DNA of 64,000 nt from an uncultured Chloroflexia bacterium (GTDB lineage: Bacteria; Chloroflexota; Limnocylindria; Limnocylindrales; CSP1-4), in contig CAVRHD010000007.1 of the NCBI GenBank assembly GCA_963720965.1, positions 49,442 through 113,441 on the forward strand. The letters run 5' to 3'. The translations under genes and the position numbers were made by a program. The notes beneath the pieces were generated by a model. The model was not told the DNA's origin and did not search any database. It worked only from the letters and a program-made list of their open reading frames with translations. Of this stretch, positions 3-57,204 are shown in pieces; the stretch's first letter is position 1, and each line of letters starts with the position of its first letter.

Positions 3-2678
3 CCCGACGGCGCTAGCCTTGTCGACCTCGGCGCCCACCGCCTGAAGGACATCGGCCGCCCCGAACACCTCTACCAGCTGGGCCATCCCGACCTGCCCTC
101 GAGCTACCCGCCGCTGATCACCGTCCACCAGGCAGGGACCGGGCTGCCGACCCGGGCTGCCGAGCTGATCGGGCGCCACGACATGCTGATCGACATTCGG
201 GATCGCCTGGTCGAGGGCGGCGTTCGACTGCTGACGCTCACCGGACCCGGCGGCAGCGGCAAGACCACGCTGGCGATCAAGATCGCCGAGGACCTCGCAG
301 CACGCTTCGAGGACGGCGCCTGCTTCGTCGACCTATCGGGCGCCCGTGACACCAATTCCGTGCTTGTCGCGATCGCCCGGACCGTGGGCCTGGGCGAGAT
401 TATCGACCGACCGCTGGAGGTCGAGCTGTTCGACTACCTCCGCGAGCGTCAGGTGCTGCTCGTGCTCGACAACTTCGAGCAAGTGACCGAGGCGGCCGGG
501 GTCGTCGCCCGACTCCTTGCCGAGTGTCCGCGGCTCACGGTCATCGCCACCAGCCGCGAGACCCTCCACGTCCGCGCCGAGCGGGTCTTTCCGGTCCTGC
601 CGCTGGGACTGCCACCGAGCGACCGGGCACAGACGACAGCCCGAGGGATCGCTCAGTCCGAGGCGGTCCAGCTTTTCGTCGACCGGGCCAGGATCGTCCG
701 ACCCAACTTCGAGCTGACCGATGAGAATGCGTCGGACGTGGCCGAGATCTGCCGCCGGCTGGACGGCCTGCCGCTGGCGATCGAGCTTGCGGCGGCCCAC
801 CTTCGGTTGTTCTCGGTCGAGGTCCTCCGGGACCGCCTGGGCAACCGCCTGGCCCTCCTGAAGAGTGGCCCGCGCGACCTCCCGGAGCGCCAGCAGACGC
901 TCCGGGCAACGATGGACTGGAGCTACGACCTGCTCGAGCCGGGCGAACAGCGCCTGTTCGAGCTGATGGCCGTCTTCGCCGGTGCCCTCGTCGCCGCGGT
1001 CGAAGCCGTCGCCGCCGGGTCAGGCGAGGCCGCCGGTCCGACGCTCGACGTCCTTGGCGGGCTGGCCGGGCTTGCCGAAAAGAGCCTCGTCCGCCTCGTC
1101 GATGGGGACGGCGGCGAGCCCCGGGTCGTCATGCTCGAGACGATTCGTGAGTTCGCAGCCGACCGGCTCGACGCCCAGCCCGAGATCGCGGCGCGCGCAC
1201 GTCGCGGACAGGCTGTCTACTTCGCCGAGTGGGCAGGCCGCGTGCGGGCCCAGCTGACCGGCGCTCGTCGCGAGATCGCCCTGACCGAGATGGGCGCCGA
1301 TGTCGGCAACCTCCGGCTGGCCTGGGCCTACTGGGTGGCAGAGCGCGATCTCGAGCGGCTCAGCCAGCTCGTGGACCCGCTCCTGATCCTTGATGACGCC
1401 CGGGGCTGGTACCTCGACACGGTTGGGCTGTCGCAGGACATGCTGTCCGTGCTTGCGGTCGTGCCCTCCTCGCCGGACCGGGTCGGCCAGGAGATTGCGC
1501 TGCGGGCTAACCTGGCGCGAGCGCTGATGACGGCGAAGGGCGTCACACCGGAAGTCGAGGCCGCCTTCGCCAGCGCGGTCGAGCTGTTCGAGAGGGGCGG
1601 CGACGTCCATCAGCAGTACGGCGTCCTGCGCGGGATGGCCAGCCTCTACCTGTTCCGGGCTCAATTCGATGAGTCCGCCAGGCTCGGCGGCGAAATCCTG
1701 GCCCTCGGCGAACGTGAGGGCAACGCCGGGATGCTGATCGACGGCCACCTTCTGATCGGCGTCCGGCAGATGTCCTTCGACGACCTCCACGGCGGTCTGG
1801 CGCACCTCGACCAGGCCATCGCCTTGTTCCCACCCGAACGGACCCGCCTGCTTGGCGGGCGGGTCGGCAACGACCCCCGGATTTCGTGCCTGACCACCTC
1901 GGGGATCACCCTGTGGCTCATGGGCTCGCTCGATCAGGCAGCCGGCCGAATGCACGCGGCCCTTGCCCTCGCGGCCGAGCTGGAGCACCCGTACTCGACG
2001 GCATACGCCCAGTTCCATGCCGGCCTGCTACGCCTGCTGATGCGCGACGGCGAGGGTGCACTCGATCTTGCGACCGAGCTGCTCGAGCTGTCGGGGGACC
2101 ACGAGTTCCGGATCTGGCTCGCGGCCGGCGGTTGCCTGCTGGGGGCCGCGCAAATCGAGCTCGGCCGGCTCGACGAGGGCCTGCACAGCCTCCACGACGG
2201 CATCGAGCGCTACCGGGAGCTTCGGTCTCCGCCGATCTTCTGGCCGTTCCTGCTATTCCTCAACGCTCGCGCCAGCCTCCGGGCGGGCGACCCAGCCGTC
2301 GGACTGGCTGCGGTCGAGTCGGCCATCGACTTCCTTAGCCAGGGCCAGGGCTCGTCCCTGCTGTCCGAGGTCGAGATCGTGAAGGGCGATCTGCTGGCTA
2401 CGGTGGCGGCCCGCGACGGGATGGACACCGCGCCGGCCGACGAGTGGTACGCCCATGCGCTCGACCGGGCTCTCCGGCTTGGTGCCCGCACCGCGCAACT
2501 CAGGGCGGCCTCGAGGCTGGCCCGAAGCCGCCAGGCCAGCGGCAACAGCAAGGCTGGGCTTGATCTCCTTCGTCCGGTCTATGACGCGTTCACCGAAGGC
2601 TTCTCGTTCCCGGATCTGGTCGAGGCGGAGGCCCTGCTGGCCAGCCTTGACATCGGCGAGGCAGCTCAGCCTGCCTGA
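3..2678 (+). CDS. Class III adenylate/guanylate cyclase (C-terminal end of catalytic domain) fused to AAA/NB-ARC (STAND) ATPase and TPR domain; 5' partial, continues upstream of window
   Basis: Frame 3 is open from nt 3 into the 183..2678 ORF. N-terminal 'LVDLGAHRLKDIGRPEHLYQL' is the conserved end of a class III cyclase domain. Walker A 'GPGGSGKTT', a 'LLVLDNFE' Walker-B-like box and long C-terminal TPR-like helical repeats follow. Same architecture as the three paralogs further along the window. Confidence 0.8.
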   Translation, partial: PDGASLVDLGAHRLKDIGRPEHLYQLGHPDLPSSYPPLITVHQAGTGLPTRAAELIGRHDMLIDIRDRLVEGGVRLLTLTGPGGSGKTTLAIKIAEDLAARFEDGACFVDLSGARDTNSVLVAIARTVGLGEIIDRPLEVELFDYLRERQVLLVLDNFEQVTEAAGVVARLLAECPRLTVIATSRETLHVRAERVFPVLPLGLPPSDRAQTTARGIAQSEAVQLFVDRARIVRPNFELTDENASDVAEICRRLDGLPLAIELAAAHLRLFSVEVLRDRLGNRLALLKSGPRDLPERQQTLRATMDWSYDLLEPGEQRLFELMAVFAGALVAAVEAVAAGSGEAAGPTLDVLGGLAGLAEKSLVRLVDGDGGEPRVVMLETIREFAADRLDAQPEIAARARRGQAVYFAEWAGRVRAQLTGARREIALTEMGADVGNLRLAWAYWVAERDLERLSQLVDPLLILDDARGWYLDTVGLSQDMLSVLAVVPSSPDRVGQEIALRANLARALMTAKGVTPEVEAAFASAVELFERGGDVHQQYGVLRGMASLYLFRAQFDESARLGGEILALGEREGNAGMLIDGHLLIGVRQMSFDDLHGGLAHLDQAIALFPPERTRLLGGRVGNDPRISCLTTSGITLWLMGSLDQAAGRMHAALALAAELEHPYSTAYAQFHAGLLRLLMRDGEGALDLATELLELSGDHEFRIWLAAGGCLLGAAQIELGRLDEGLHSLHDGIERYRELRSPPIFWPFLLFLNARASLRAGDPAVGLAAVESAIDFLSQGQGSSLLSEVEIVKGDLLATVAARDGMDTAPADEWYAHALDRALRLGARTAQLRAASRLARSRQASGNSKAGLDLLRPVYDAFTEGFSFPDLVEAEALLASLDIGEAAQPA

Positions 2679-2707
2679 CCGGCATCCCGGGCCGCCGACG
2701 TCGACTG

Positions 2708-4500: not shown

Positions 4501-6165
4501 ATGGCGATCGACCATTCAGCGTCCGCCGCCGACAAGGACGACGCCAGTCGATGGTGGCAGGACGGGGTCGTCTACCAGGTGTACCCGCGGAGCTTCGCCG
4601 ACTCGAACGGCGATGGGGTCGGTGATCTGCCGGGGCTGATCGACCACCTGGACCACCTCGCCGGCGGACCGAGCTCGCTCGGCATCGACGCCATCTGGCT
4701 TTCGCCGATCTACCCGTCGCCCATGCTCGACGGCGGCTATGACGTCACCGATTACACGGCGGTCGATCCTGTCTTCGGTACGCTGGCCGACCTTGACCGG
4801 CTGATCCAGGAATGCCATCGCCGGGGTATCCGGCTGATCCTCGACCTGGTGATGAATCACACCAGCAGCCTGCATCCGTGGTTCAGCCAGTCGCGTCGGT
4901 CGAGGACCGGGCCATTCGCCGACTTCTATCTGTGGCGGGATCCGTCTGGGTGGGACCAGGATGGTCGGCCGGAGCCGCCGAACAACTGGCTGTCATGGTT
5001 CGGAGGGTCGGCCTGGGAGTGGGAGCCCCTGCGAAAGCAGTTCTACCTCCACACGTTCCTGCCCGAGCAGCCCGACGTGAATTGGCGGTCCCCCGCTCTG
5101 CGCACGTCCATGTGGTCGATGGTCCGGGGCTGGCTCGACCGCGGCGTCGATGGGTTCCGGCTCGACGTGTTCAATGCGTTCCTCAAGGCGGCGGAGATGC
5201 CATCGAACCCCGAGGTCGCGACCGGCGGTTCGATCCCCTGGGACAGCCAGGAGCATCGCTACGACAAGGACCAGCCCGATCTGCACGATCTCCTGGCCGA
5301 GCTCCGAGGCATCGTCGACTCGCGGCCAGGCACCGCCACGGTCGGCGAGCTGTTCACGAGCGGGATCGAGACCGCCGTCTCGTTTTGGGCACCGCGTCAC
5401 CTCGTGTTCGACTGGGTCCTCCTCGAGACCACCTGGTCGGCGGCGTCCTTCCGCGCGGCGATCGCTGCCCGCGAGGCGGCCTGGTCCGATCGCTGGCCGG
5501 CGATCGCGTTGTCCAACCATGATCACTCCCGACACGTCTCGCGCTATCTGGACACGCTCGGTCGTCGCGATCCAGCGACAGCAGATGCCGTCGCGAAGGC
5601 CGCCGCGACGATCGAGCTGACGCTCCGGGGCACGCCCTTCCTCTACTACGGCGAGGAGATCGGCGCCCAGGACATCGCGGTGCCCCGTGCGGGCGCCCGG
5701 GATCGGGCGGCAGTGCGCATGCCCGACTGGTGGAACCGCGATGGCTGCCGCGCGCCGATGGCCTGGTCCGGCGACACGAACGCCGGCTTCACGGGCGGCT
5801 TGCCATGGTTGCCGGTTCCACCCGATGCGGCGTCGCGGAACGTCGAGCGCCAGCGGGCGTCGCACAGCTCCGTCCTGGCCCACTACCGGCGGCTCCTGGC
5901 GCTTCGGCGAGGGACTGCCGCACTTCGGACCGGTGAGCTCGCCCTGGTCGACGTGGGCGACCCCGACGTCCTCGCCTATCTCCGCCGGTCAGGCGACGAG
6001 GTCGCCCTGGTGGTGGTCCGCTTTGGTCTTCGAGGTGGCGAGATCGAGCTACCCTCCGCCGCCGGTCCGTGGCGGGTCGCGCTCTCAAGCCACGACCTGG
6101 CCACGCCAACGGTCGGGTCGCGCGTGCCGCTGCGACCGCTCGAGGCGATCGTCCTGCTGTCCTGA
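4501..6165 (+). CDS. Alpha-glucosidase / oligo-1,6-glucosidase (GH13)
   Basis: Classical GH13 motifs: '[26 protein letters not shown]', '[11 protein letters not shown]', 'GGYDVTDY', '[14 protein letters not shown]', 'GFRLDV'. ATG at 4501 with a GGAGCAGGAG upstream; the ORF-track start at 4438 is in the same frame. Confidence 0.85.
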
Positions 6166-6181
6166 GCCGTACGATGCACGG

Positions 6182-7549
6182 GTGAGCCTGCCGACCTTCG
6201 AGACCGACCCTGTCCGGCTCGCCAGCCCGTTCCCGGCCGACTTCGCCTGGGGCTTCGCCGCCTCCGCCTACCAGATCGAGGGTGGTGCGGCGGAGGACGG
6301 CCGCGGACCATCGATCTGGGACACCTTCGCCCGCCGGCCGGGTGCGATCGCCGATGGCAGCTCGGGCGACGTCGCCTGCGACCACTATCACCGCTACCCG
6401 GACGACATCCAGCTGATGGCCGAGCTGGGGGCCCGCGCCTATCGCTTCAGCATCAGCTGGTCGCGGGTCCTGCCCACCGGGACGGGGGCCATCAACCAGC
6501 GCGGCCTGGATTTCTACGAGCGCCTCGTCGACGCCCTGCTCGGACGCGGGCGTCCAGCCGCTGATCAATCTCTTCCATTGGGACCTGCCCCAGGCGTTAC
6601 AGGACCGCGGGGGCTTCGCCAACCCGGAGGTCGTGGGCTGGTTCACCGACTATGCCGCACCTGCTCGCGTCGAAGCTGGGCGACCGGGTCAAGGATTGGA
6701 TGACGTTCAACGAGCCGGCCGTGTTCGCCTTCCTCGGCCATGCCGACGGCATTCACGCGCCGGGGCTGCGCGACTGGCCGACGGCGATCCGTGTCGCCGA
6801 CAACGAATTGCGCGCTCACGCCAGCGCCGTCCAGGCGATCCGCGCCCAGGTCGGACGTCGCCAGGATCGGGCTGGCGATGGACGTCAACCAGGTCGCGCC
6901 GGCGACGGATTCCGAGCGGGATCGAGTCGCCGCCGACCAGTGGAGCTCGGCCCGCGACGCGTGGTTCCTCGATCCACTCTTCGGTCGTGGCTACCCGGCG
7001 CTCGGGCTCGCGGCTCATCGCGAGGCTGGTCACCTCGAAGGCGTCGACCTCGCCGAGCCGCCGGCCGGCGATCTCGACTACCTGGGCCTGAACTACTACC
7101 GGCGCGACTCGGTCAGCAGCAGGTCGGACCGACCATTCGACTGGGAGATCGGCGCCCAGCCCGGCTCGGAGCAGACCCAGATGGGCTGGCATGTCGCGCC
7201 CGATGGCCTGCGCGACGTGTTGATCGAGCTCAACCGGACGTACGCTCCGGCGGAGATCGTGATCACCGAGAACGGCGCGGCATATCCCGATGTCGTCGAT
7301 CCGGACGGCCGGGTGCGCGACGAGGCCCGCCTTGGCTACCTGGCCCGCCATGTCGCGGCGGCAGCCGAGGCGCTTCGCGCGGGCGTGCCGCTGACCGGCT
7401 ACTACGTCTGGTCGCTCCTCGACAACTACGAGTGGAGCCTCGGCTATACCCGGCGGTTCGGCCTGGTCCACGTCGACTTCGCCAGCCAGCGGCGCACCCC
7501 GAAGGACAGCGCCCGCTGGTATCAGCGACTCATGGCCGGGAGCGAATGA
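6182..7549 (+). pseudogene. Beta-glucosidase (GH1), interrupted by three single-base frameshifts (~6547, ~6657, ~6850)
   Basis: GH1 hallmarks split over three frames: '[19 protein letters not shown]', '[29 protein letters not shown]', '[10 protein letters not shown]', 'TFNEP', 'ITENGAAY', 'YYVWSLLDNYEWSLGYTRRFGLVHVD'. Each break is a 1-nt indel in a G/C run, e.g. 'ctcggacgcggg' where 'ctcgacgcgggc' gives LLDAGVQPL. Confidence 0.8.
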
Positions 7550-9090
7550 CCGCGCGGATACAGGCCGGCGATGTCCACCGGCAAGCGGCCGACGAAGGGC
7601 GCCTCGCCCAGCAGCGCGGCCGCCAGCGCCTCCATCGTCGGTGGCAGGATGCCGTAGCTGCAGACATGGCTTCGAGCTGACGGGTACGCGAGCAGGTCCC
7701 ACGGCGTGCGCAGGGCGACGGTGACGGTCGGCCGGCCGGACGCGAGGACCGCCGCGGCGAGGCCGGCCTGCGCCGCCTGGAGGTGCGCGGAGTATCGTCC
7801 CGACCACGACGAGGTCGAAGGTCGCGAGCCGCTCGCCAAGGCCGCCAAGGTCAGCCTCCCGGAGCTCCGCCGGCAGGAGGATCTCCTCGACGCCCGCGAG
7901 CCGGCGCCGGAGCGCCGCCGCCAGCGTCGGCGGCACCGTGGAGGACGTATCGGCCGGGGTGAGGTCGGCGGGCATCGACTGGACGACGGCGACCCGCGCG
8001 TCGGCGGCGAGCTTCAACGGCAGCAGTCGGTCGTCGTTGCGGACGAGCGTGATCGAACGCTGGGCCAGCTCGGCGGCGAGGGCCTGGTGCTCGGCGCAGC
8101 CGACGACGTCGAGCGCTGGCTGCTCGAAGCGTCCGATCCAGCGACGCAGGTCGCCCAGCCTGCGCCTCGCCGCGGCGTCCTCATCAGGCTCGATCAGGCC
8201 TCGCCAGTGCGCCTGCGCGAGGCCCTCCGCCAGCCGTTCCAGGGCGGGCTCGTCGGCGGTTCCGAGGAGCACGTCCTCGCCGGCCCGGAGGGCCACGACC
8301 GCATCGACGATCTGGGCCGATCCCTGGGCCAGGGCCCTCATGTCCAGGGCGTCGCTGACGGTCACGCCAGCGAACTGGAGCTGCCCGCGCAGCAGGTCGC
8401 GCAGCACCGCCGCGGACAGGCTGCTCGGCAGGTCGTCGTTCTGGCCGGGCAGCACGACGTGGCCGGCCATGACCATCCGCGCGCCCGCTGCCAATGCCGC
8501 TCGAAACGGGACCAGCTCCCGCTCAGCCAACTCGGCATTCGTCCGCCGGACGAGCGGCAGCTCGTGGTGGGGATCGGCGGTGGTGTCGCCGGCTCCCGGG
8601 AAGTGCTTGGCCGTCGCGGCCACGCCCTCGCGTTGGAGGCCCCGGACGGTCGCCGCCGCGAGCCGTCCGACCGCCTCGGGATCGTCGCCAAAGCTGCGGA
8701 TCCCGAGGGCCGGATTGGCCGGGTTGTTGGCAACGTCGCACACCGGCGCGTAGTTCACGTTGACCCCGAGCGCACGCAGCTCGCGCGCCGTCGCGCCGGC
8801 GACGCGCTCGGCCAGCTCCTCGTCGCCGGTCGCGCCAAGCGCCATCGCGCCGGCGAACTGGGTCGTCGCCGTCGCCCAGGCCGATCAGCTGGCCGCCCTC
8901 CTGGTCGGCGGCAATCGAGCAACGCTGGTGCCCCGGCCGGACGGGCCTCCTGGATGGCCGCCGTCAGCGTCCTGATCTGGGGCGGGTCAACGATGTTGTG
9001 GGCGCGGAAGAGCGTCACACCCGCGACTCCGTCCTCGTGGATCCTCTTCGCCGCCGAACGCGGCAGCTCGCTGCCGGCGAAGGCGATCAT
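7522..9090 (-). pseudogene. nagZ: GH3 beta-N-acetylhexosaminidase (NagZ-like), frameshifted at ~8905 and ~7850; 3' end overlaps the GH1 gene convergently
   Basis: N-terminus 'MIAFAGSELPRSAAKRIHEDGVAGVTLFRAHNIVDPPQIRTLTAAIQEA', then after a 1-nt indel 'LLIAADQEGGQ...MALGATGD...KHFPGAGDTTADPHHELP...', and C-terminus 'VALRTPWDLLAYP...VCSYGILPPTMEALAAALLGEAPFVGRLPV' in a third frame. Confidence 0.75.
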
Positions 9091-36216: not shown

Positions 36217-36222
36217 GGCTCC

Positions 36223-38564: not shown

Positions 38565-38565
38565 G

Positions 38566-41246: not shown

Positions 41247-43202
41247 GTGGCATCTCCGGCCAGGGTTCCAGTCGCAACCGTTGCCCCGACCGACCATGCC
41301 CTGAGCGCGCTCAGGCCGCTTCAGGCCGGCGATGCCACGATCAGCGGCGGCTTCTGGGCGACCCGCCAGCGCCTGAATCGCGAGCGCTCCCTGGCCCACG
41401 GCTTCGGCGAGCTGGAGCGAGCCGGCAATCTGAACAACCTGCGCCTGGCCGCCGGGGCGAGCGGAACCTACCGGGCCGTCGGCCTGGCCAGCGGCCTCGT
41501 CTTTCCATTTCTCGACACCGACGTCTACAAGTGGCTCGAGGCGGTCGCCTGGGAGCTCGGCCGCGCTCCGTCGGCCGACCTGAGCCGGGCTGCCGACGAG
41601 GCCATCACGGCCGTGGCCGGGGCCCAGCGCGCGGACGGCTATCTCAACAGCTACGTCCAGGTCCTGGGCGAGACGAAGCCCTACGCGGACCTCCAGTGGG
41701 GCCACGAGCTGTACTCGTACGGCCATCTGACCCAGGCGGCCGTCGCCTGGCACTCGGTCCTGGGCGACGACCGGCTCCTGAACGTCGCGCTCCGGGCGAT
41801 CGAGTCGGTCGAGCGCGAGTTCGGCTCGGCCGATCGGCCGCCCCTCGACGGTCATCCCGTGTTCGAGACGGCCCTGGTCGAGCTCTACCGAGCGATCGGT
41901 GACGAGCGGTTCCTGGACCTGGCTGCCCGGATGATCGACCAGCGCGGCCACGGGCTGATCGGCGAGGGTCGCTTCGGCTCGGCCTACTGGCAGGACCTGG
42001 AACCGGTCCATGAGGCACGCTCGGTCGCCGGACACGCCGTCCGCCAGCTGTACCTGGACGCCGGAGCCGTGGACGTGGCCGCCGAGGTCGGCGATCAGCG
42101 CCTTCTCGACGCCGTCCAGCGGCGCTGGCAAGACCTCGTCGCGACCCGGACGTATCTCACCGGCGGGATGGGCAGCCGGGCCCGCGACGAGGCGTTCGGC
42201 GACCCGTTCGAGCTACCGCCCGATCAGGCCTACGCCGAGACCTGCGCGGGCGTGGCCAGCGTGATGCTGGCCTGGCGCCTCCTCCTGGCAACAGGCGATC
42301 CGGCTTGTGCCGACCTGATCGAGCGAACGATCTTCAACGGAGTCCTGGCTGGCTCGTCGCTCGAGGGGACCGAGTTCTTCTACACGAACCCGCTCCAGCG
42401 CCGGACCGAGCGAGCCGCCGCCGAGCCGGGTTCTGGTCGTCGAGCGCGCTGGCAGGCCTGCGCCTGCTGTCCACCAAACCTGATGCGCCTGCTCAGTTCG
42501 TGGGAGCAGTACCTCGCCACGAGCGATCGGGGCGGGGTCCAGATCCATCAGTACGCGACGGGCGAAGTCCGGGCAACGGTCGGAGGCGGGGTCGTTCGGG
42601 TAGCCGTCGAGACCGACTACCCGTGGGATGGGCGCGTCGTCGTCCGGATCGTCGAGAGTCCGTCCGAGCCGTGGTCGCTGTCCCTGAGGGTCCCCGGCTG
42701 GTGCCAGTCGGCCTCCGTCCGAGTTAACTCAGGCGAGAGCCAGGCCGGCCACGGGGGGACTCGCTGGGCCTCGCCGACCCAGGCCTGGCGCCGGGGCGAC
42801 GAGGTCGTGCTCACGATGGACATGCCGGTCCGGGTTACCCAGCCCGATCCGCGGATCGACGAGATCCGGGGCTGCCTCGCTTTGGAGCGCGGCCCGCTCG
42901 TCTACTGCATCGAGAGCGCCGACCTGCCCGACGGCGTGATCCTCGAGGACGTCGTCCTCGAACCGACCGTGCGGCCGCGCACGACCGCCCGGCCCGACAT
43001 CGCCGAGTCGATGGTCGGCTTGATCGTGCCCGCGATCCATCGACCAACGCCGAATCCGACCGAGTGGCCCTACCGGCGCAGCGGTGGTGGCGGCCATCGC
43101 GCGGTCGAGGCCCGGCCGATCGACGCCGGGGCGATCCCCTACTTCGCCTGGGCGAACCGCGCGGACGGCGCAATGCGAGTGTGGATACCCGTCCGGGCCT
43201 GA
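41247..43202 (+). CDS. Glycoside hydrolase family 127 (beta-L-arabinofuranosidase HypBA1-like, DUF1680)
   Basis: 651 aa with the GH127 Cys-rich zinc motif 'CACCPPN' and 'ETCA'. GTG start with GAGGA RBS. Confidence 0.75.
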   Translation: MASPARVPVATVAPTDHALSALRPLQAGDATISGGFWATRQRLNRERSLAHGFGELERAGNLNNLRLAAGASGTYRAVGLASGLVFPFLDTDVYKWLEAVAWELGRAPSADLSRAADEAITAVAGAQRADGYLNSYVQVLGETKPYADLQWGHELYSYGHLTQAAVAWHSVLGDDRLLNVALRAIESVEREFGSADRPPLDGHPVFETALVELYRAIGDERFLDLAARMIDQRGHGLIGEGRFGSAYWQDLEPVHEARSVAGHAVRQLYLDAGAVDVAAEVGDQRLLDAVQRRWQDLVATRTYLTGGMGSRARDEAFGDPFELPPDQAYAETCAGVASVMLAWRLLLATGDPACADLIERTIFNGVLAGSSLEGTEFFYTNPLQRRTERAAAEPGSGRRARWQACACCPPNLMRLLSSWEQYLATSDRGGVQIHQYATGEVRATVGGGVVRVAVETDYPWDGRVVVRIVESPSEPWSLSLRVPGWCQSASVRVNSGESQAGHGGTRWASPTQAWRRGDEVVLTMDMPVRVTQPDPRIDEIRGCLALERGPLVYCIESADLPDGVILEDVVLEPTVRPRTTARPDIAESMVGLIVPAIHRPTPNPTEWPYRRSGGGGHRAVEARPIDAGAIPYFAWANRADGAMRVWIPVRA

Positions 43203-43245
43203 TCGCTGAGGGCCGCGCGAACCTTCCGGAGACGGCTGCGCGGCG

Positions 43246-44265
43246 CTAGGTGGTCCGGCGGACCCAGGACGCGGTCGAATTGCGAACGACCAGGGTCGGC
43301 TCGAACATCGTGACCCGCGGCTCGCGCGGCAGCGACGGATCCCGGGCAAACTCGATCGCCTGCCGAACTCCCTCACCCACGATCTCGGTGATCGGCATGC
43401 GCATCGTCGTCAGCGCGGGAACGGTGTAGGCGGCCAGCTGGAGGTCGTCGAAGCCCACGACCGACAGGTCGTTCGGAATCGACAACCCGCGCAGGGAGGC
43501 AGCATGGAGCGCCCCGAGAGCGACGTAGTCGGTCGAGGTCGCGATCGCCGTCGGCGGTTCGGACAGCTCGAGCAGGGCCCGAAGGGCCGCCTCGCCGCCC
43601 GCCAGACTGTTCGGGACACGCTGAACGTAGCCCTCGGGTAGCCGGCCGAAACGGACCCGCATGAACTCGACGAAGGCGTCCTCGCGATGCGGGTTGCCGC
43701 CGGGCAGCTCCGCGCTGACGAACGCGATCCGCTCGTGGCCCAGGCCGATCAGGTGCTCGAGGCCGGCCATCACGCCAGCCCGGTCGTCACTTTCCACGGT
43801 CGGGAAGTCGATCGGGCTCGAACCCTGCCACAGGGCGACAACAGGCACGGGCGTTTCGCGCAGGTCTTCGAGCAGGCGCGGCTGATGCTGGATATCGCCG
43901 AGCAGGACGATCGCGTCGCAATGCCGGGGCTCGAGGACGGCCGTCAGGGCGAGCGCTTCGTCGAGCCGTCCGTGGGCGTGGCCGAGCACGATGTTGTAGC
44001 CCCGTGACATGGCCTCGACGACAAGGGTGGCGATCGCCGAGGCGAAGAAAGGGTCGCTGAAGTCACGCACGACGGCGCCGACGAGCATCGTCGGGGCGCC
44101 GCGCAGGCCGCGGGCAAACGGATTCGGTCGGTAGTGCAGCCGCTCGGCGGCGGCCCGCACCCGCTCGCGTGTCTCGGGCGCGATGGGCACCCGGGTCGGG
44201 GCGTCGTTGAGGACCCGCGAAACGGTGCTCTGGGAGACACCGGCGAGTTCGGCAATATCGCGCAT
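43246..44265 (-). CDS. LacI-family transcriptional regulator
   Basis: 'MRDIAELAGVSQSTVSRVLN' HTH N-terminus followed by a periplasmic-binding-protein-like sugar-binding domain. ATG at 44265; the ORF-track start at 44415 is too early. Confidence 0.8.
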   Translation of the reverse strand: MRDIAELAGVSQSTVSRVLNDAPTRVPIAPETRERVRAAAERLHYRPNPFARGLRGAPTMLVGAVVRDFSDPFFASAIATLVVEAMSRGYNIVLGHAHGRLDEALALTAVLEPRHCDAIVLLGDIQHQPRLLEDLRETPVPVVALWQGSSPIDFPTVESDDRAGVMAGLEHLIGLGHERIAFVSAELPGGNPHREDAFVEFMRVRFGRLPEGYVQRVPNSLAGGEAALRALLELSEPPTAIATSTDYVALGALHAASLRGLSIPNDLSVVGFDDLQLAAYTVPALTTMRMPITEIVGEGVRQAIEFARDPSLPREPRVTMFEPTLVVRNSTASWVRRTT

Positions 44266-44428
44266 CGTCGTGATCTGGACAACCTGCCGGAGTCCAGGTG
44301 GGCGGGCGGCTGGCTCCTGTGGCGAGTCCCTGGGCATCGGCATCCGTCCCGTGCGAATCTTCGCTGGATCGTAGCACGCTGCCATGCACTCATACGTATT
44401 CATGAGGGCTGCCAACGCGTAGCCCGTC

Positions 44429-45233: not shown

Positions 45234-45473
45234 ATGAAGACGGCTGTCTCCGTTCCCGACGACCTGTTCGCTCAGGTCGACCGTCTCGCCCGACGCTCGC
45301 GCAGGTCCCGCAGCGAGCTCTACAGTGCCGCGCTACGGGAGTACGTCGCCCGGCACGCGCCCGATGAGGTGACGGCGGGACTCGATCGCGTCATCTCGGA
45401 GGTCGGCCAGCCAGACGGTGACCAGTTCATTGCCGCGGCCGCCCAGGGGACTCTCGGCTCGACCGAGTGGTGA
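45234..45473 (+). CDS. Ribbon-helix-helix antitoxin (MazE/CopG-like)
   Basis: 79 aa '[38 protein letters not shown]'; stop overlaps the toxin start (GTGA). -10-like TTATACT upstream. Confidence 0.7.
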   Translation: MKTAVSVPDDLFAQVDRLARRSRRSRSELYSAALREYVARHAPDEVTAGLDRVISEVGQPDGDQFIAAAAQGTLGSTEW

Positions 45474-45814
45474 TCGCCCAGGGCGAGGTGTGGTGGGCCG
45501 ACCTCGGGGAGCCGGCTGGGTCAGGGCCCGGGTTCAGGCGGCCGGTGGTCGTAGTCCAGGGTGACGCCTTCAACCGCAGCTCACTTCGCACGGTCGTATG
45601 CGTCAGCCTGACGAGCAACGTCCATTGGGCGGATGCTCCGGGCAACGTGCTCCTGCTCGCTCGTGCAACCGGCCTGCCGAGGGACTCCGTGGCCAACGTG
45701 TCGCAGCTCGTGAAGCTCGACCGGGACGCCCTCACCGAGCGCACCGGCGCGCTGTCAGCATCGAGCCTGGAGCTCGTGCTGGCCGGGATCGACGTAGTGC
45801 TCGGGCGTTCGTGA
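45467..45814 (+). CDS. MazF/PemK-family mRNA interferase toxin
   Basis: 'GEVWWADLGEP...RPVVVVQ' N-terminal SH3-like barrel signature of PemK/MazF; 115 aa. Confidence 0.7.
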   Translation: MVIAQGEVWWADLGEPAGSGPGFRRPVVVVQGDAFNRSSLRTVVCVSLTSNVHWADAPGNVLLLARATGLPRDSVANVSQLVKLDRDALTERTGALSASSLELVLAGIDVVLGRS

Positions 45815-45875: not shown

Positions 45876-46902
45876 ATGAAGAAGATCGGGTTCCTCTCCT
45901 TCGGCCACTGGTCGGACATCACCCTACTCGCAGGTGCGCTCCGGCGTCGGACGCGCTCATCCAGTCGATCGAGCTGGCGGAGGCGGTCGAGGACCTGGGA
46001 GCCGACGGCGCCTACTTCCGGGTCCATCACTTCGCCCGGCAGCTGGCGTCGCCGTTCCCGCTCCTCGCGGCGATCGGCGCGCGGACCAAGCGGATCGAGA
46101 TCGGGACGGCCGTCATCGACATGCGCTACGAGAACCCGCTGTACATGGTCGAGGACGCCGGCGCGGCCGACCTCATCGCCGGCGGCCGCCTGCAGCTCGG
46201 CATCAGCCGCGGCTCACCCGAGCAGGTCATCGACGGCTTCCGCTACTTCGGGTACGCGCCGGCCGAGGGGGCAGACCGACGCCGACATGGCCCGCGAGCA
46301 CACCGAGGTCTTCCTGCAGGCCCTGACTGGAGCCGGCTTCGCCGCAGCCGAACCCCACGCCGATGTTCGCGAACCCGCCCGGGCTGCTTCGCCCGGAGCC
46401 GCACTCGGCCGGGCTGCGCGACCGGATCTGGTGGGGAGCCGGGTCACGCGCGACGGCCCAATGGACTGGCCAGCAGGGCATGAACCTGATGTCGTCGACG
46501 CTCCTGACCGAGGATGCCGGCGTGCCGTTCCACGAGCTCCAGGCGGAGCAGATCCGCCTGTTCCGGGAGGCGTGGGCGGCGGCTGGGCATCAGCGCGAGC
46601 CGCGGGTCTCGGTCAGCCGGAGCATCTTCGCCCTGGTCGACGACCGGGATCGCGCCTACTTCGGTCACGGCAACCAGGACGCGGACCAGGTCGGCTACAT
46701 CGACGCCCAGACCAAGGCGATCTTCGGGCGTTCGTACGCCGCGGAGCCGGACGTCCTGGTCAGGGAGCTCGCCGGGGACACAGCGATCCAGGCGGCGGAC
46801 ACGATCCTGCTGACCGTCCCGAACCAGCTCGGCGTCGAGTACAACGCCCACGCGATCGAGAGCATCCTCAAGTTCGTCGCGCCGGAGCTCGGCTGGCGAT
46901 AG
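45876..46902 (+). pseudogene. LLM-class (luciferase-like) flavin/F420-dependent oxidoreductase, about 3 frameshifts
   Basis: 'MKKIGFLSFGHW' N-terminus. 'ELAEAVEDLGADGAYFRVHHF', 'RIEIGTAVIDMRYENPLYMVEDAGAADLIAGGRLQLGISRGSPE', 'GTAQWTGQQGMNLMSSTLL' and the C-terminus '...AHAIESILKFVAPELGWR' lie in different frames. Confidence 0.65.
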
Positions 46903-46949: not shown

Positions 46950-49752
46950 GTGACCCAGCCAGGGGCGACCCACACCGCGACGTTCCTGATGACCGACATC
47001 GCGGGGAGCACGCGCCTGTGGGAGGAGCAGCGCGAGGCGATGGTCCTCGCCCTGGCGGCCCACGACGACTTGCTGCGAGCCGCCGTCGAGGAGGCCGGCG
47101 GCACCGTCTTCAAGACGACCGGGGATGGGCTCCTTGCGGCCTTCGAGCGCCCCGGAGCTGCCGTCCGGGCGGCCATTGCGGGACAGCAAGCCCTGCAGGA
47201 TCACCCCTGGCCTACCACCACCCCGCTCCTGGTCCGGATGGCGATCCACGCCGGCGATGCCGAGCTCCGCAACGACGACTACTTCGGACCGTCGCTCAAC
47301 CGCGTGGCCCGGGTGCTCGCGATCGGCCACGGCGGGCAAGTCCTCGTGTCCGCGGCGGCCGCGGCGCTCGTCGCCGACGACCTGCCGGCGGGCGCGGCGC
47401 TGTTCGACCGCGGCGAGCACCATCTCAGGGACCTCACCCGGTCCGAGCACGTCTACCAGCTGACCGCACCCGGCCTCACCACCGACTTTCCAGCGCTTCG
47501 CTCAGGCGCGGCACCCACGAACCTGCCGGCCGACCTGACCACCTTCATCGGTCGGAGCCGGGAAGCGGCCGAGATCCGGGGCATCCTCGCAACCCACAGG
47601 TTCGCGACGCTCGTCGGGGTTGGCGGCACCGGCAAGACGCGTCTCATGCTCCACGTCGCCGGCGAGCTGTCTGACCAACACGTCGATGGGGCGTGGCTGG
47701 TCGAGCTCGCTCCGCTGCGCGAGCCCGAGCTCGTCGCCTCCGAGGTCGCCCGGGCCCTGGGTGTCCAGGTTTCGCCCGGCCCAGCCGGCCATCGTCGCGC
47801 TCACTGACTTCCTTCGGAGCAAGGACCTGATCCTGCTGCTCGATAACTGCGAGCACCTGATCGAGGCAGCAGCCGGCCTCGTCGAGCATCTTCTTGCGAG
47901 CATGCCGCACCGTGCGGGTGCTGGCGACAAGCCGCGAAGCACTCGGGGTCCCGGGTGAGGCCACCTATCCGGTGCCCTCGTTGGCCCTGCCCGAGACGAT
48001 GGACCAGCTCGACCTCGAGGCGATCGCGGCGACCGAGGCCGTGAGCCTCTTCGTCGAACGGGCCACGACCACGTTGCCCTCGTTCCGGCTCGATGACTCC
48101 AACGCGGCCAGCGTGGTCGAGATCTGCCGGCGGCTGGACGGCATCCCGCTGGCCCTGGAGCTGGCCGCCGCCCGGGTCAACGTCCTGTCGGCGGCCGAGA
48201 TCGCCCAGGGCCTGGGCGATCGATTCCGCCTCCTGACCGGCGGCCGGCGGACCGCCGTGCCCAGGCAACAAACCCTCCAGGCGCTCATCGACTGGAGCTG
48301 GGACCTGCTGACCGAGGCCGACCAGCGGCTCCTCGGCCGGCTGTCCGTCTTCACCGGCGGCTGGACGCTGGACGCCGCGGCCGGGGTGGCCGGCGACCAG
48401 GATGATCCGGCGGCGGCGCCGTCCGGCGCAGCCCGTCTCGAAACGCTCGACGGCCTGGGCCGCCTCGTCGATCGCTCCCTCGTCGTCGTGACCCCCGCCG
48501 AGACCACCCGCTACGGCATGCTCGAGACGATCCGCCAGTACGCAAACGACCGGCTGGTCGCCAGCGGCGAGGCGGCCGCCCGGCGGACCCGGCACCTCGC
48601 CTGGTTCCGGCGCCTGGCGGCCGACGCGTCGACCGGCATCGCCGGCCCCGACATGGCGACCTGGCTGGGCCGGGTCGAAGTCGACCTCGACAACCTGCGG
48701 ACCGCGCTGGATTGGGCCTACGAGACCGACGTGCCAATAGCGCTCCGAGATGTACGTCGGCCTCGGCGCCTACTGGCGACTGCGCGGCCTCGGCTCGGAG
48801 GGCGTCGACCGGATGGCCGAGGCGATCGACGTCCTTCGGCGCTGGCGATCGGAGCCGTCGGACGATGCCCGAGGCTGAGCGGACCCTCCTCGCTGCGCGG
48901 GTGATGGTCGCGGCGTTCAACATGTCCGGCTACGCAGGCTGGAGTGCCGTTGGCTCGATCGGCGACGAGACTATGGCGGTCGCACGCGCCTCGGGTGATC
49001 CGGCGGCGATCGTCGATGCCCAGGTCCTGGCCCTTCAGACGGAGATCATGACCCGTGGTGGACGTAACACCGAAGGACTTCGGGCCGCCGCCCTGGAGGC
49101 GCTCCAGCTCGCCACGAATCTCGACGACCCACTCCGGCAGTCCACGGTCCTGACCGGCCTGGCGATGATCGATGCCCAGGTTGATCCCGACGCCGCGGAG
49201 GGATGGCTCGAGCGGGCGGCTGCTGCCGCCGAACGGAGTGGCAATCCAGCCGCGATCGCAGGCATCTTCCAGATGCGCGGCCGGGTCGCCAGTCGCGCCG
49301 GTCGAGAGGTCGAAGCCCAACGCTGGTTCCGGGAAGCGGCCGAGCGCTATGGGGCCGTTGGCGACATCCGGTTCACGATGTCCTCCCAGAGCGAGCTCGC
49401 CCACGCCATGCGCCGAGCCGGCGCTATCGACGAGGCCGACGCGGAGTACCGCCAGACGATCATGGGCTGGCAGCGCATCGGCAACCGCGGGGCCGTGGCC
49501 AATCAGCTGGAATCGATGGCCTTCACCGCGATCGCGCGGGGCTCCGGGGCGAGGGCGGCGCGGCTGTTGGGGGCCGCCGAAGCGTTGCGCGAGGCCTCGG
49601 GGGATCCGATGACGGTCGACGAGCGCGGGGAGTACGACGCGGAGGTGGACCGCCTGCGCGGGCTCCTCGACCCGCCGGACCTGGCCGACGCCTGGGCCGA
49701 TGGCCGGCGGCTGACCTCGGATCAGGCCGTGGCGCTCGCCGTCTCCGTGTAG
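46950..49752 (+). pseudogene. Class III nucleotidyl cyclase + AAA/NB-ARC ATPase + TPR (STAND-type), about 3 frameshifts (~47790, ~47900, ~48740)
   Basis: Cyclase 'ATFLMTDIAGSTRLWEE...FKTTGDGLLAAF...MAIHAGDAELRNDDYFGPSLNRVARV...RGEHHLRDLTRSEHVYQL'. Walker A 'GVGGTGKTRL'. 'ILLLDNCEHL'. 'ICRRLDGIPLALELAAARV'. C-terminal TPR block in the 48712..49752 frame. Confidence 0.75.
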
Positions 49753-50401: not shown

Positions 50402-50402
50402 C

Positions 50403-51566: not shown

Positions 51567-51608
51567 CCCACGGGCGGGCGGCCGGCACATTGCCACGGCC
51601 GCACTTCT

Positions 51609-52070
51609 TCAGCCGGAGGGCCGATCACCGCGCGGCCCCTGCCGGCCGTCGCTGTGGATCAGGACCCCGCCTGGGCGTAGCAAACGGCGCTCCTGCTCGT
51701 GGATCTCGCGGCGGATGCGTTCCGTCGCGGGCCGATAGGCGGCGCGGAACTCAGGCGAACCGAATAGGCGGCTCTCGTGGACCGCGTCGAAGGAACCTGT
51801 TGCGAGGAAGTCGAGCGAACCCGGGACGCCAAGGTCGACCAGATGATGGACGAACGCCTCGCCGTCCAGGTCGCCAACATCGATCCCGACCGGTTCCGCC
51901 CCGAGCTCCAGGAGGAGCCGGCACATCCACGGCTCGAACTCGGCGGTCCGCGCGCCGGTGATCGGCGAGCGGCTGGAGTTCGACCCGCAGGCGATATCGA
52001 GGACCGACTTGCCACGGACCGCCGAGAAGGGGTCGAAGGCATTTGCCAGGCGGCCGATGAGCTCGGTCAT
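51609..52070 (-). CDS. Class I SAM-dependent methyltransferase-like protein (short, 153 aa)
   Basis: Motif I-like 'VLDIACGSN' and post-I 'RLLRPGGVLIHSD'. Weak assignment. Confidence 0.45.
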   Translation of the reverse strand: MTELIGRLANAFDPFSAVRGKSVLDIACGSNSSRSPITGARTAEFEPWMCRLLLELGAEPVGIDVGDLDGEAFVHHLVDLGVPGSLDFLATGSFDAVHESRLFGSPEFRAAYRPATERIRREIHEQERRLLRPGGVLIHSDGRQGPRGDRPSG

Positions 52071-52263
52071 GATCTTGCCGAGTCGCGGTTCCGCCCCGAT
52101 CTTCGCGCCCAGATGATGGCGGGCGTCGAGCTCGTGGAGAGCACGGCCGAGGGCCTCGCGGTCGGATGGCGTCCGGCCGAGAGCCGCGAGCCGTGGAAGG
52201 TGGTCAGGCGCCGTAGAGGAGCTCCGCTGTCCAGGATGACCGTCGCTGGTTCAGGATGGCACG

Positions 52264-53672: not shown

Positions 53673-56600
53673 GTGAACTGCTCGATCTGCGGATCGCTCA
53701 ATCCGCCGGGGGTCAAGTTCTGCGAGGAGTGCGGCTCGCGGCTCGGGACGACTTGCGCCTCGTGCGGCGCCGCGCTGAGTTCGAGCGCCAAGTTCTGCGG
53801 TGAATGCGGGGCTGCGGCGGCGTCGGCAGCGCCGGCTTCAGCTGCGCACCCGGATCACGACCAAGCCCAGGCTCCAGTTGCCGAGCGCCGCCTCGTCTCG
53901 ATCCTGTTCGCCGATCTCGTCGGCTTCACCTCCCTGGCCGAAGGCCGCGACGCCGAGGACACCCGCGAGCTGCTGAGCCGCTACTTCGAGCTTTCGCGCG
54001 ACGTCATCGCCCGCTATGGCGGCACGGTCGAGAAGTTCATCGGCGATGCCGTCATGGCGGTCTGGGGAGCACCGACGGCCCACGAGGATGACGCCGAGCG
54101 AGCAGTCCGAGCGGCGCTCGAGCTGATCCACGCGGTCAAGTCGCTTGGCCCGGAGATCGAGGCGCGGGCGGGCGTCCTGACCGGCGAGGCGGCGGTCACG
54201 ATCGGGGCGACGAACGAGGGCATGGTCGCGGGCGATCTGGTCAACACGGCGTCGCGGCTCCAGAGCGTCGCCCAGCCGGGAACCGTGCTCGTCGGCGAGG
54301 CGACCCAGCGGGCTGCGTCGGCCGCGATCGCCTTCGAGCAGGCCGGCGACCAGGTGGTCAAGGGCAAGACCGCCCCTGTCCCGGCCTGGCGTGCGTTGCG
54401 GGTCGTTGCCCAGGTCGGCGGTCGCAACCGCTCGGAGACGCTCGAGGCTCCATTCGTCGGCCGGGACGACCAGCTTCGCCTGCTGAAGGACCTCTTCCAT
54501 GCCACGAGCCGGGATCGCCACGCCCGGCTGATCTCGGTCACCGGACCTGCCGGGATCGGCAAGAGCCGCCTCGCCTGGGAGTTCCGCAAATATGAGGACG
54601 GCCTGGTCGAACGTGTCTGGTTTCACGACGGTCGCTCCCCAGCGTACGGCGAGGGGATCAGCTTCTGGGCGCTGGGCGAGATGGTCCGGCGGCGGGCCGG
54701 GCTCGTGGAGACCGACGACGAGGACACTACCCGGACCAAGGTCGCCGAGACCCTGGCTCTCCACGTTCCCGATCCGGCCGAGCGGCGCTGGATCGAATCG
54801 GCGCTGCTGACCCTCCTGGGGGTCGAACCATCCACGACCGTTTCGGAGCAGCTCTTCGCGGCCTGGCGGACCTTTTTCGAACGTCTTGCGACGACGGCGC
54901 CAGTCGTCCTGGTCTTCGAGGACTTCCATCACGCCGACACCGGCCTGATCGACTTCGTCGACCACCTCCTCGAATGGAGCCGGAACGTCCCGATCTACGT
55001 CGTCACGCTGGCTCGGCCCGAGCTCCTCGAGCGCCGACCCGACTGGGGCGCCGGCAAGCGGAGCTTCATCGCGCTCTATCTCGAGCCGCTGCCAGAGCCG
55101 GCCATGCGCGAGCTCCTGGCCGGGCTCGTGCCCGGGTTGCCCAGTTCCGCCGTCAAGGCAATCGTCGAGCGGGCCGGCGGGATCCCGCTGTACGCCGTGG
55201 AAACCGTCCGGATGCTTGTGTCCGAGGGCCGCCTGAGCCTCGAGGGAGATTGCTATGTCCCGATCGGCGACCTGACCAACCTGGCCGTGCCCGAGACGCT
55301 GACGGCACTGATTGCCAGCCGCCTCGACCGGCTACCGGCCGACGATCGGGCCCTGGTCTCGGACGCGGCCGTTCTCGGCCAGAGCTTCACGATCGCCGGC
55401 CTGTCGGCCGTCTCCGGGATCGACCAGGGCGAGCTCGAGCCACGCCTCCTGGCCCTCGTCCGCCGGGAGCTCCTGACAGTCGAGACCGATCCCCGCAGCC
55501 CTGAGCGCGGCCAGTACTCGTTCGTCCAGGCGCTGATCCGTGAGGTCGCCTACAACACTCTGGCCAAGCGTGACCGGAAGTCGCGCCATCTCGCCGCGGC
55601 CCGGTTCTTCGAATCGCTCGGCACAGACGAGATTGCCGGCGTCCTGGCCGGCCACTACCTGGCTGCCCACGGAAACGCAACCGATGGGCCGGAAGCCGAA
55701 GCCCTGGCCGGCCAGGCCCGGATTGCCCTCCGAGCGGCGGCCGAACGAGCCATCGCCCTGGGCAGCTACGGCCAGGCCCTTCGCTTCTATGAGCAGGCCC
55801 TCACCGTCGCAACCGACCCGATCGAGGTCGCGGAGCTGCACGAGCGGGTGGGTGAGGCAGCCACCATCGCCGGCCGCCACGAGATCGCCGAGGACGAGCT
55901 TCGGCGGGCGATCGAAGCGCGCCATGCCCTGGCGGATCGTCCCGGCGTCGCCCGCGCCACGACCGCCCTGGGCCGGGAGTTGATCGCCGTGTTCCGGGTG
56001 GCGGACGCGTTGGCCCTGCTCGAGCCTGCCTCGCTGGAGTTCGCCGATCTCGAGACCGAACCGGTGGGCGTTGACCTGCTCAGCCAGCTTGCCCGGGCAT
56101 TGTTCCTGTTGGACGAGACCACCCGCGCGCTCGAGGTCGCTGAACGGGTCCTCAACCTGGCCGAACGGGCCAACCTCCAGGCGATCATCGCCGACACCCT
56201 CGTTACCCGGGGAACCGCGCTGGCTCTCGTCGGCCGGGCCTACGAAGGCCTCGGGGTGATCAAGGCGGGCCGCGAACTGGCTGAGTCGATTGGGCTCAAC
56301 ACGACCGTCCTGCGGGCGATCAACAACATCGTGTTCGTCGGCGGACCTCGGGATCCCCGGTCGGCCCTGGCGCTGTGCCGGGAGGGGATCGCCATCGCCC
56401 GGCGGCTCGGCCAGCGGACATGGGTCCCGGGTCTGATCGACGGCGTCGCCGAAGGAGGCCTGCGTACAGGCGAATGGGCGCAGGCGCTGGCTGAGATCAT
56501 CGATGCTCTCGACGACGATTGGGAACCGGTCGACCGAGCCTGGTTCTTGATCGATGCGACGATCCACTGGGCGGTGCGGGGCGATGCCCTCGATGACCGG

Positions 56601-57204
56601 CTTGACGAGCTGTCGGCCCTGGTCAGGGACTCGGACGATCAGCAGACCCTGGCCAATGCGGCGCACGCGGCCGGGTTTGTCGAGCTCGCACGGGGAGACT
56701 TCGTGGCGGCCCGGGCGTCCTGGCACCGGGCCACCTCGCTCTCCATCGGGCAGCTCCTGTATGCCGGGCCGCGCGCAGCCCGGGCGGCGCTGTGGGCGGG
56801 CGACCGTGCCGGAGCCAGTGCCGATCTCGAGGCTCTCGATGAAGCCGGACTTCACGGGCCGGCCGTGGAGGCTGATCGGCGCACGATCCGGGCCGGCATC
56901 GCCGCGCATCGACGGCCGGACCACCGAGGCGCTCGCCTTGTATCGCGAGTCGTTGCGTGCATGGCGCGACCTGGGCCTGCCCTGGGATGAGGCCCTGTGC
57001 GGGATCGACATGGCGACCCTCCTCGACCCGGACCTCCCGGAAGTCAAGGCGGCTGCCGATACTGCGATGGAGATCCTCACCCGGCTGGAGGCGGCGCCGT
57101 TCGTCGCGCGGCTGGAGGCCGTCCGCGCTCGCGCTTCGTCCGAGCGCCCGCTGCCCGTGCCCGAGTCGAGCCCAATAGCAACCTCGTCACAGATCCGCGG
57201 CTGA
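53673..57204 (+). pseudogene. Double zinc-ribbon + class III nucleotidyl cyclase + AAA/NB-ARC ATPase + TPR (STAND-type), one frameshift near 56905
   Basis: N-terminus 'CSICGSLNPPGVKFCEECG...CASCGAALSSSAKFCGECG'. Cyclase 'VSILFADLVGFTSLAE...FIGDAVMAVWGAP...TGEAAV...GDLVNTASRLQ'. Walker A 'GPAGIGKSRL'. 'LVFEDFHHAD'. TPR block. Real C-terminus '...EALALYRESLRAWRDLGLPWDEALCGIDMATLL...' read in the 56554..57204 frame. Confidence 0.75.

Follow-up and report, generated by a model that had tools for sequence, protein, structure and literature searches.

Four cyclase-STAND-TPR proteins of two lineages in an uncultured soil Chloroflexota are probably receptor-type cyclases, one of them resembling soluble adenylyl cyclase

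The active sites of class III nucleotidyl cyclases form only at a dimer interface, and their residue set comprises two metal-binding Asp, a specificity Lys together with an Asp or Thr, and the transition-state Asn and Arg. The activation steps of signal transduction ATPases with numerous domains (STAND) are known from MalT, APAF-1, and PH0952-type proteins. Both modules occur in Rv0386, Rv1358, and Rv2488c of mycobacteria, in which an N-terminal class III cyclase is followed by an AAA_16/MalT-type STAND NTPase, a helical or tetratricopeptide repeat (TPR) region, and a C-terminal LuxR/GerE helix-turn-helix (HTH) domain. To our knowledge, almost no cyclase-STAND-TPR proteins have been studied beyond these LuxR-bearing enzymes. 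Here, we analyzed four genes of this kind (g1 to g4) in a stretch of 64,000 nucleotides (contig CAVRHD010000007.1, positions 49,442 to 113,441; hereafter the window). The window contains 70% G+C and comes from an uncultured, Limnocylindria-like Chloroflexota bacterium from soil, whose genome was assembled from long reads. We propose that the four proteins are probably cytosolic receptor-type class III cyclases, namely ligand-gated enzymes of cyclic AMP (cAMP) signalling and not transcription factors. They are members of two abundant, already known families.

In Pfam, all four sets of open reading frames (ORFs) matched TPR and a P-loop NTPase of STAND type (NB-ARC or AAA_16), and Guanylate_cyc was matched in g2, g3, and g4 (E 1e-7 to 1e-22; Table 1). 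In g1, the window edge cuts off the cyclase, and only its last ~25 residues are left (PDGASLVDLGAHRLKDIGRPEHLYQL, nt 3..~80). They are followed by an NB-ARC domain (aa 60-308, nt ~180..926, E 3.5e-12) with Walker A GPGGSGKT and Walker B LLVLDNFE, and by a TPR/MalT-like region (aa ~460-891; TPR_MalT, E 1.6e-5). Relatives of g1 that are full-length comprise ~1010-1040 aa, and their residue ~145-155 aligns with residue 1 of g1. In P0371, the nearest of them (59% identity), Guanylate_cyc spans residues 9-159, and the D-K-D-D-N-R set is complete.

An earlier note, made from the DNA letters alone, had located the four genes and read them as cyclase, STAND NTPase, and TPR proteins. We recovered this plan at about the same coordinates, but g2 lies on the minus strand, and alignment to the N-termini of its homologues indicated a likely GTG start at 22894 rather than at the boundary of 22804 given there. 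The g2 ORF scanned with Pfam (19091..22984, minus strand) contained two Guanylate_cyc stretches, AAA_16 (1.3e-22), and TPR_12 (1.4e-20). Numbered from Met22804, its domains are CHD1 (aa 10-190), CHD2 (aa 231-400), AAA_16 (aa 419-603), and TPR (aa ~880-1271), with Walker A GDPGAGKS and Walker B VVVLEDLHWAD. Meanwhile, g3 matched Guanylate_cyc, an AAA_22/NB-ARC-like NTPase, and TPR_12, with Walker A GVGGTGKT and Walker B LLLLDNCE. The double zinc ribbon that the note had seen in g4 was borne out (DZR, aa 1-47, 9e-11), and it is followed by the cyclase (aa 74-233, 2e-20), AAA_16 (aa 260-434, 1e-19), and TPR. As the note had also held, no C-terminal LuxR domain is present: Pfam found no GerE/LuxR match in g1, g2, g3, or g4, even at permissive E-values. 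The PF25872 (HTH_77) domain precomputed on g3-like proteins gave no local Pfam match even at E 5; it may be the STAND winged-helix domain.

Table 1. Coordinates of the four cyclase genes and of the annotated genes next to g3 and g4 in the window.
Feature	Position	Strand	Basis or remark
g1, 3' part, 891 aa; cyclase-NB-ARC-TPR protein	3..2678	+	Pfam
g2, ~1301 aa; tandem cyclase (C1-C2), AAA_16 STAND NTPase, TPR	18988..22894	-	Pfam, homologue alignment
g3, 932 aa once insertions are removed; cyclase, NB-ARC-type NTPase, TPR	46950..49752	+	Pfam, L002 alignment
g4, 1176 aa frame-corrected; double zinc ribbon, cyclase, AAA_16 STAND NTPase, TPR	53673..57204	+	Pfam
Luciferase-like monooxygenase	45876..46902	+	Directly upstream of g3; 4 inserted bases break the frame
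DUF2652 gene, 236 aa	52863..53573	-	Divergent from g4
DUF2652 + SRPBCC (Polyketide_cyc2) gene	57216..58313	+	Pfam: DUF2652 8e-30, Polyketide_cyc2 2e-13

The four genes had been taken for paralogues. BLASTP joined the genes in two pairs only: g1 and g3 share 42% identity across their NTPase and winged-helix region, and g2 and g4 share 28% across cyclase and NTPase. Between the two pairs, a short TPR match alone was significant, and the NTPase and cyclase parts had no match. Thus, four recent paralogues can be rejected, and the proteins belong to two unrelated STAND lineages. The nucleotide-binding oligomerization domain of g1 and g3 is of NB-ARC/AfsR type, with the Walker B pattern hhhhDN.E and partial AfsR matches in NCBIfam; that of g2 and g4 is of MalT/AAA_16 type, with the pattern hhhhEDxHWxD.

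These assignments allow the proteins to be compared with described regulators. AfsR-type NB-ARC-TPR regulators (AP-ATPase clade) share the NB-ARC NTPase, the winged-helix region, and the C-terminal TPR with g1 and g3, but carry an N-terminal SARP DNA-binding module where g1 and g3 have the cyclase; therefore, the output of g1 and g3 would be a small molecule rather than transcription. MalT and PH0952-type switches have in common with the window proteins the plan of P-loop NTPase, arm, and TPR sensor, and with g2 and g4 the Walker B context hhhhEDxHWxD; their output is a C-terminal LuxR HTH, whereas here it is an N-terminal enzyme. The Rv0386-type proteins, which the earlier note had used as reference homologues, indeed share the order of cyclase, AAA_16/MalT-type NTPase, and helical/TPR region with g2 and g4. 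However, they end in the LuxR/GerE HTH that g2 and g4 are without, and therefore no DNA-binding output is expected of the latter two. In addition, g4 differs from them by its double zinc ribbon and g2 by its two cyclase domains, and the closest relative of g2 lies elsewhere (see below).

The positions of the class III residue set were checked against PDB alignments. In g3, D16, K55, D59, D110, N117, and R121 form the canonical adenylyl set, which is found in ~107-117 of 118 homologues. Across 126 sequences of the g4 family, D81, K121, D125, N191, and R195 are invariant, as are K297 of Walker A and E416/D417 of Walker B, and the eight zinc-ribbon Cys are kept wherever the N-terminus is present. 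In the g2 family (118 sequences), C1 keeps both metal Asp (D25 and D75) and has Thr/Ser at the Asn position; C2 has lost the first metal Asp, and its N353 and R357 are invariant. The two domains thus complement each other in the manner of a C1/C2 arrangement. Thus, the class III catalytic set is complete in each of g3 and g4, split over C1 and C2 in g2, and complete in the relatives of g1. Absence of the catalytic residues from all copies, which the earlier note had named as a finding that would overturn its proposal, was not observed. Furthermore, the Walker A and B residues are invariant in the family alignments of g2, g3, and g4. The assignment to STAND NTPases is based on these residues, on the Pfam matches to NB-ARC or AAA_16 with TPR, and on the structural model of g2 described below.

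The first 410 residues of g2 were modelled with AlphaFold2 using 49 homologues (pLDDT 93.4, pTM 0.92). In a Foldseek search with this model, the top PDB matches were 24 entries of the catalytic core of human ADCY10 (4usu and 4clf among them), that is, of soluble adenylyl cyclase (sAC). The model aligned to the single-chain C1-C2 core of ADCY10 with TMq 0.80-0.83 (top match 0.82) and a root-mean-square deviation of ~3.3 Å over ~438 columns, and the next-best fold match was the soluble domain of AC9. By sequence, too, the top PDB match of g2 was ADCY10 (phmmer, E 1.2e-15). Furthermore, residues of g2 map onto those of sAC as follows: D25 to D47, D75 to D99, R151 to R176, T346 to T405, N353 to N412, and R357 to R416. 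Like g2, ADCY10 has two non-identical cyclase domains that pair within one chain as a pseudo-heterodimer, with the metal Asp pair in C1 and Thr/Asn/Arg in C2. This agrees with the pseudo-heterodimer that the earlier note had suspected in g2. With residues divided in this way, g2 would have one composite active site and one degenerate regulatory pocket.

The likeness to sAC was measured over the catalytic core only. For full-length mammalian sAC, a STAND domain with a P-loop after the cyclases has been predicted, as found in g2, and a biochemical study from 2025 found no regulator specific to the sAC STAND region (PMC12802110). The model of g2 aa 401-1165 (pLDDT 91.4) had the STAND-TPR protein 6MFV as its best fold match. 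In the same phylum as the host of g2, a sAC-like cyclase of Chloroflexus aurantiacus is activated by bicarbonate like sAC, according to the work of Kobayashi et al. as it is cited in PMC11006738. The Lys95/Arg176 pair of the sAC bicarbonate site is not reproduced in g2, which has Ile71 at the position of Lys95 and Arg151 at that of Arg176; across the g2 family, Lys is found at the first position in 80 of 118 sequences and Arg at the second in 57 of 118. Based on the fold match, the PDB sequence match, and the residue mapping, the closest characterised relatives of g2 are members of the sAC family (ADCY10 and the Chloroflexus enzyme), rather than Rv0386 or the antiviral STAND (Avs) proteins; the earlier note had overlooked this kinship.

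Homologues of g2, g3, and g4 were collected at E <= 1e-10 among 8000 scored candidates each, and there were at least 8000 for g4, 7932 for g3, and 710 for g2. The best 120 of each nearly all had the same length and architecture as the window protein, with identities of 65-77% (g4), 55-86% (g3), and 41-85% (g2), and they are named 'class 3 adenylate cyclase/TPR' or 'predicted ATPase/class 3 adenylate cyclase' in their sources. For g1, the module was matched by 130,620 representatives of 50%-identity clusters. No GerE domain was found in the best 120 homologues of g2, g3, or g4. Together with the retained catalytic and Walker residues and the absence of GerE from the four proteins themselves, this upholds the idea that they are cyclic-nucleotide-producing sensors and not LuxR-type transcription factors.

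For the reading of the four proteins as receptor-type cyclases, the direct evidence comprises the domain identities, the conserved residues of the catalytic and Walker motifs, the likeness of the g2 fold to sAC, the purifying selection on the genes (see below), the lack of an HTH output, and a non-defence context. The activation mechanism, the product nucleotide, the physiological role, the ligand, and the downstream receptors are inferred. The N-terminal cyclase would be the output, the STAND NTPase a nucleotide-dependent oligomerisation switch, and the C-terminal TPR region the sensor. A ligand bound to the TPR arm may relieve autoinhibition, upon which ADP would be exchanged for ATP at the NTPase and the protein would oligomerise. 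In g1, g3, and g4, which have one cyclase domain each, oligomerisation would join these domains and switch on cAMP synthesis, because class III active sites need a dimer interface. In g2, the C1-C2 pair appears to be preformed in one chain, and therefore its STAND-TPR part would modulate the catalytic core rather than assemble it. The product is most probably cAMP, and its receptors would be encoded at other loci of the genome.

Several points weigh against this reading. The cyclase of g1 is not directly visible and is deduced from full-length relatives such as P0371. In g4, the specificity Lys121 is paired with Met184, neither Asp nor Thr, and Met stands there in 125 of 126 sequences. In g2, Ile occupies the place of the bicarbonate-binding Lys95 of sAC, and its C2 domain has Leu/Trp at what we take to be the substrate Lys of sAC (K334), a position placed by motif and not by alignment. 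The window shows no gene for a cAMP receptor. In addition, the cyclase seems to have been exchanged for SIR2, DUF4062, or TCAD9 in close relatives of g1, and effector swapping of this kind is typical of conflict systems.

Some of these points could mean that the cyclases make another messenger (cGMP, cCMP, or cUMP), or that g2 is mainly a nucleotide or bicarbonate sensor, so that the proteins are not the usual adenylyl cyclases. The Lys and Met pairing of g4 would fit such a possibility, as would the purine-specifying positions of g2 C2, which are Leu276/Thr346 in the window protein and mostly Trp/Ala across its family. The best PDB sequence match of the g4 cyclase is the guanylyl cyclase Cya2, and weak similarities to the Pycsar cyclase PycC exist. 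However, g3 (K55/D110) and the relatives of g1 have the canonical Lys/Asp adenylyl pair, the Glu of Cya2 is a Lys in g4, and the Thr/Asn/Arg set of g2 is that of sAC, itself an adenylyl cyclase. We therefore give this alternative little credence, and cAMP remains the favoured product.

In the window, the reading frame is interrupted in each of g2, g3, and g4, and g3 is scattered over several frames. Frameshifts were counted by comparison with sister assemblies, since gene calling with a hidden Markov model of GC3 was too noisy alone. We found four single-base insertions in g3 (at ~47774, 47900, 48748, and 48864) and one frameshift each in g4 (near 56907) and g2 (near 19309), both toward the 3' end. 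The reconstructed proteins have 1271 aa (g2, from Met22804), 932 aa (g3), and 1176 aa (g4). Taken at face value, these frameshifts could be real, and the three genes could be decaying pseudogenes from an expansion of paralogues. However, all of g3 (932 aa), g4, and the luciferase-like gene are intact in the sister assembly L002, which is 96-97% identical to the window at the nucleotide level. An intact g4 copy of 1176 aa (P0121), from the L002 contig, shares a protein cluster with the truncated g4 product of the window. A base-by-base comparison of g3 with L002 gave exactly four single-base insertions, at the predicted frame changes.

Furthermore, the extra bases are not confined to the cyclase genes. 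Between assemblies there are 45-102 gap openings per ~20 kb, and the extra bases of the window also break the luciferase-like gene, GH1, GH3, and an ORF of 2285 aa; gene-breaking single-base insertions are seen across the window, for example in 45876..46902, ~6163..8861, and 23096..29955. Over the four genes aligned with L002, 13 bases were extra in the window and 1 was missing, and this excess suggests a systematic error of long-read assembly or polishing. L002 and a further contig, L004, carry frameshifts of their own in genes that are intact in the window or in each other, and the closest public genomes are long-read metagenome-assembled genomes (MAGs). The substitution pattern is one of purifying selection, with dN/dS of 0.18 for g3, 0.13 for g4, 0.15 for g2 (against the L003 orthologue), and 0.02 for the luciferase-like gene. 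From the intact sister copies, the equally broken housekeeping genes, and the low dN/dS, we read the frameshifts of the window as indels of the assembly and the genes as functional. Pseudogene decay is thus very improbable and was rejected.

The density of such genes in the window had been thought unusual. In a complete MAG chromosome (OY970185.1), we found an orthologue of g2 (85%), an orthologue of g3 (80%), and three g4-like genes (82, 68, and 62%). One cluster there runs in the order AAA_16+GerE gene, Fer4-cyclase gene, DUF2652 gene (minus strand), the 82% g4-like gene, luciferase-like gene, and g3-like gene. Since this cluster recurs in OY970185.1, the neighbourhood of g3, g4, luciferase-like, and DUF2652 genes is inherited. 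In addition, 79 g4-like loci from several phyla were compared, and ~25 of them (about 30%) have a further cyclase-domain gene within 6 kb. Thus, clustering recurs in relatives, and a cyclase density like that of the window is usual in these lineages. As a side observation, the AAA_16+GerE STAND gene lies directly before the Fer4+cyclase gene in L005 1..2101 (OY970185.1, ~3.0096-3.0117 Mb), and this pair looks like a split version of a LuxR-type STAND cyclase.

The earlier note had also compared the proteins with antiviral STAND and other NLR-like defence proteins. In that case, they would be conflict or anti-phage sensors, in which TPR senses an invader protein, the STAND NTPase oligomerises, and the cyclase emits a cyclic nucleotide (cNMP) alarm that leads to an effector or to growth arrest. 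The tripartite layout of Avs proteins, with effector, STAND NTPase, and repeat sensor, is indeed that of the window proteins, and PycC of Pycsar has the cyclase fold in common with them. Cyclases that make cNMP are effectors in some conflict systems (PMC7159879). TPR is also the most variable region of the window proteins (~54% identity, versus 70-86% in the other domains).

The exchange of modules is seen among the relatives of g1. In the best 150 of the 130,620 representatives, the N-terminus is a cyclase in 92, whereas in 23 the chassis (35-54% identity) is joined to a different N-terminal module. The module was identified in nine of these 23: SIR2_2 in P0372 (54% identity over residues 42-880) and P0402, TCAD9 in P0376 and P0405, the TIR-like DUF4062 in P0407 and P0430, SARP/BTAD in P0422 and P0434, and HTH_3 in P0447. 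For the SIR2_2, TCAD9, and DUF4062 versions, the identity of the chassis is 46-54% over ~840 aa, and the two SIR2 versions match the PADLOC candidate PDC-S65 (E 1e-131 to 1e-134) through their SIR2 part. By analogy, g1 and g3 could be true bacterial NLR immune or conflict receptors with cAMP or another cNMP as the alarm, because their NB-ARC-TPR chassis, sensor included, carries SIR2, DUF4062, and TCAD9 in close relatives; we consider this improbable. Module swapping alone is indecisive, because SARP and HTH regulators share the g1 chassis and N-terminal swapping is thus not specific to defence.

The other evidence does not favour a defence role. PADLOC matched none of the window proteins to an Avs or other STAND defence model, and its PycC matches were weak and covered the generic cyclase core only (E 1e-18 at best). 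Avs3 was a weak structural match of g2 aa 401-1165 (TM 0.20). Unlike in Pycsar, where PycC is encoded beside a TIR or transmembrane effector that cNMP activates, no gene for a cNMP-binding or cNMP-activated partner effector adjoins the cyclases in the window or in the sister loci. A defence-island context is likewise absent from both, where the neighbours are genes of sugar metabolism. Furthermore, vertical conservation is high, with orthologues at 80-85% protein identity and gene order partly kept, and dN/dS is 0.13-0.18. Hence, the proposed analogy is not supported for these proteins as a group, conflict sensors are an unlikely explanation of them, and we retain the reading as receptor-type cyclases in signalling.

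The other genes of the window include those for an AI-2E transporter, amylase, GH1, GH3, GH127, arabinose isomerase, FGGY kinase, sugar ABC transporters, LacI and TetR regulators, a glycosyltransferase, an MFS transporter, and an acetyltransferase. Between g2 and g3, a cluster for the utilisation of L-arabinose/arabinofuranoside (33884..44415) comprises FGGY kinase, AraA isomerase, an ABC transporter with solute-binding protein, GH127 beta-L-arabinofuranosidase, and a LacI regulator. The only genes of conflict type close to the cyclases are two RHH/PemK (MazF-type) toxin-antitoxin pairs, mapped from the L002 annotation to ~45234..45814 and ~62880..63510. The adjacency of the luciferase-like gene and g3 is kept in L002 and L005/L007.

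Two DUF2652 genes flank g4. The downstream one starts 12 nt past the g4 stop codon, an arrangement repeated in L002, and it is probably co-transcribed with g4. L052 has a related gene as well, placed there on the upstream side of the g4 orthologue. Both DUF2652 genes encode the cyclase-like motifs ADISGYT and KLEGD. From these motifs and the Pfam clan, the two proteins may be akin to cyclases, although hhalign against cyclase profiles gave weak matches (E 0.006, probability ~6%). A conserved linkage of g4 with DUF2652 was rejected, as it was found only in the closest g4 orthologues (L002, L005/L007, and L052).

Divergent from g2, the 23096..29955 gene (plus strand) encodes a protein of ~2285 aa with no confident Pfam domain; it has weak matches to Pentapeptide_4, Big_13, and Peptidase_C25, a strongly negative GC skew, and an internal 15-nt repeat of pentapeptide type (23881..24235). 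Large genes without Pfam domains also adjoin the g2 orthologues in L003 and L004. In addition, a 51-nt tandem repeat at 30707..31290 (11.7 copies, 89% matches, local GC skew +0.21) encodes a Gly-rich repeat of 17 aa in an ORF without Pfam match. Between the glycosyltransferase and DUF1905 genes, ~694 bp of the window (51567..52260) are missing from L002.

For annotation, our results mean that the frameshifts of the window are assembly errors and that the genes are not to be called pseudogenes. The g2-type proteins are putative full-length bacterial counterparts of sAC; they are compact, and both the catalytic core and the STAND-TPR arm were modelled with confidence. Thus, g2-type homologues could make the role of the sAC STAND region testable. 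Meanwhile, cyclase, SIR2, TIR-like, and SARP modules replace one another on a single NB-ARC-TPR chassis, and this offers a handle on how signalling and conflict STAND proteins may be converted into each other. The main value of these proteins is as tractable bacterial models for the STAND region of sAC and for the swapping of output modules.

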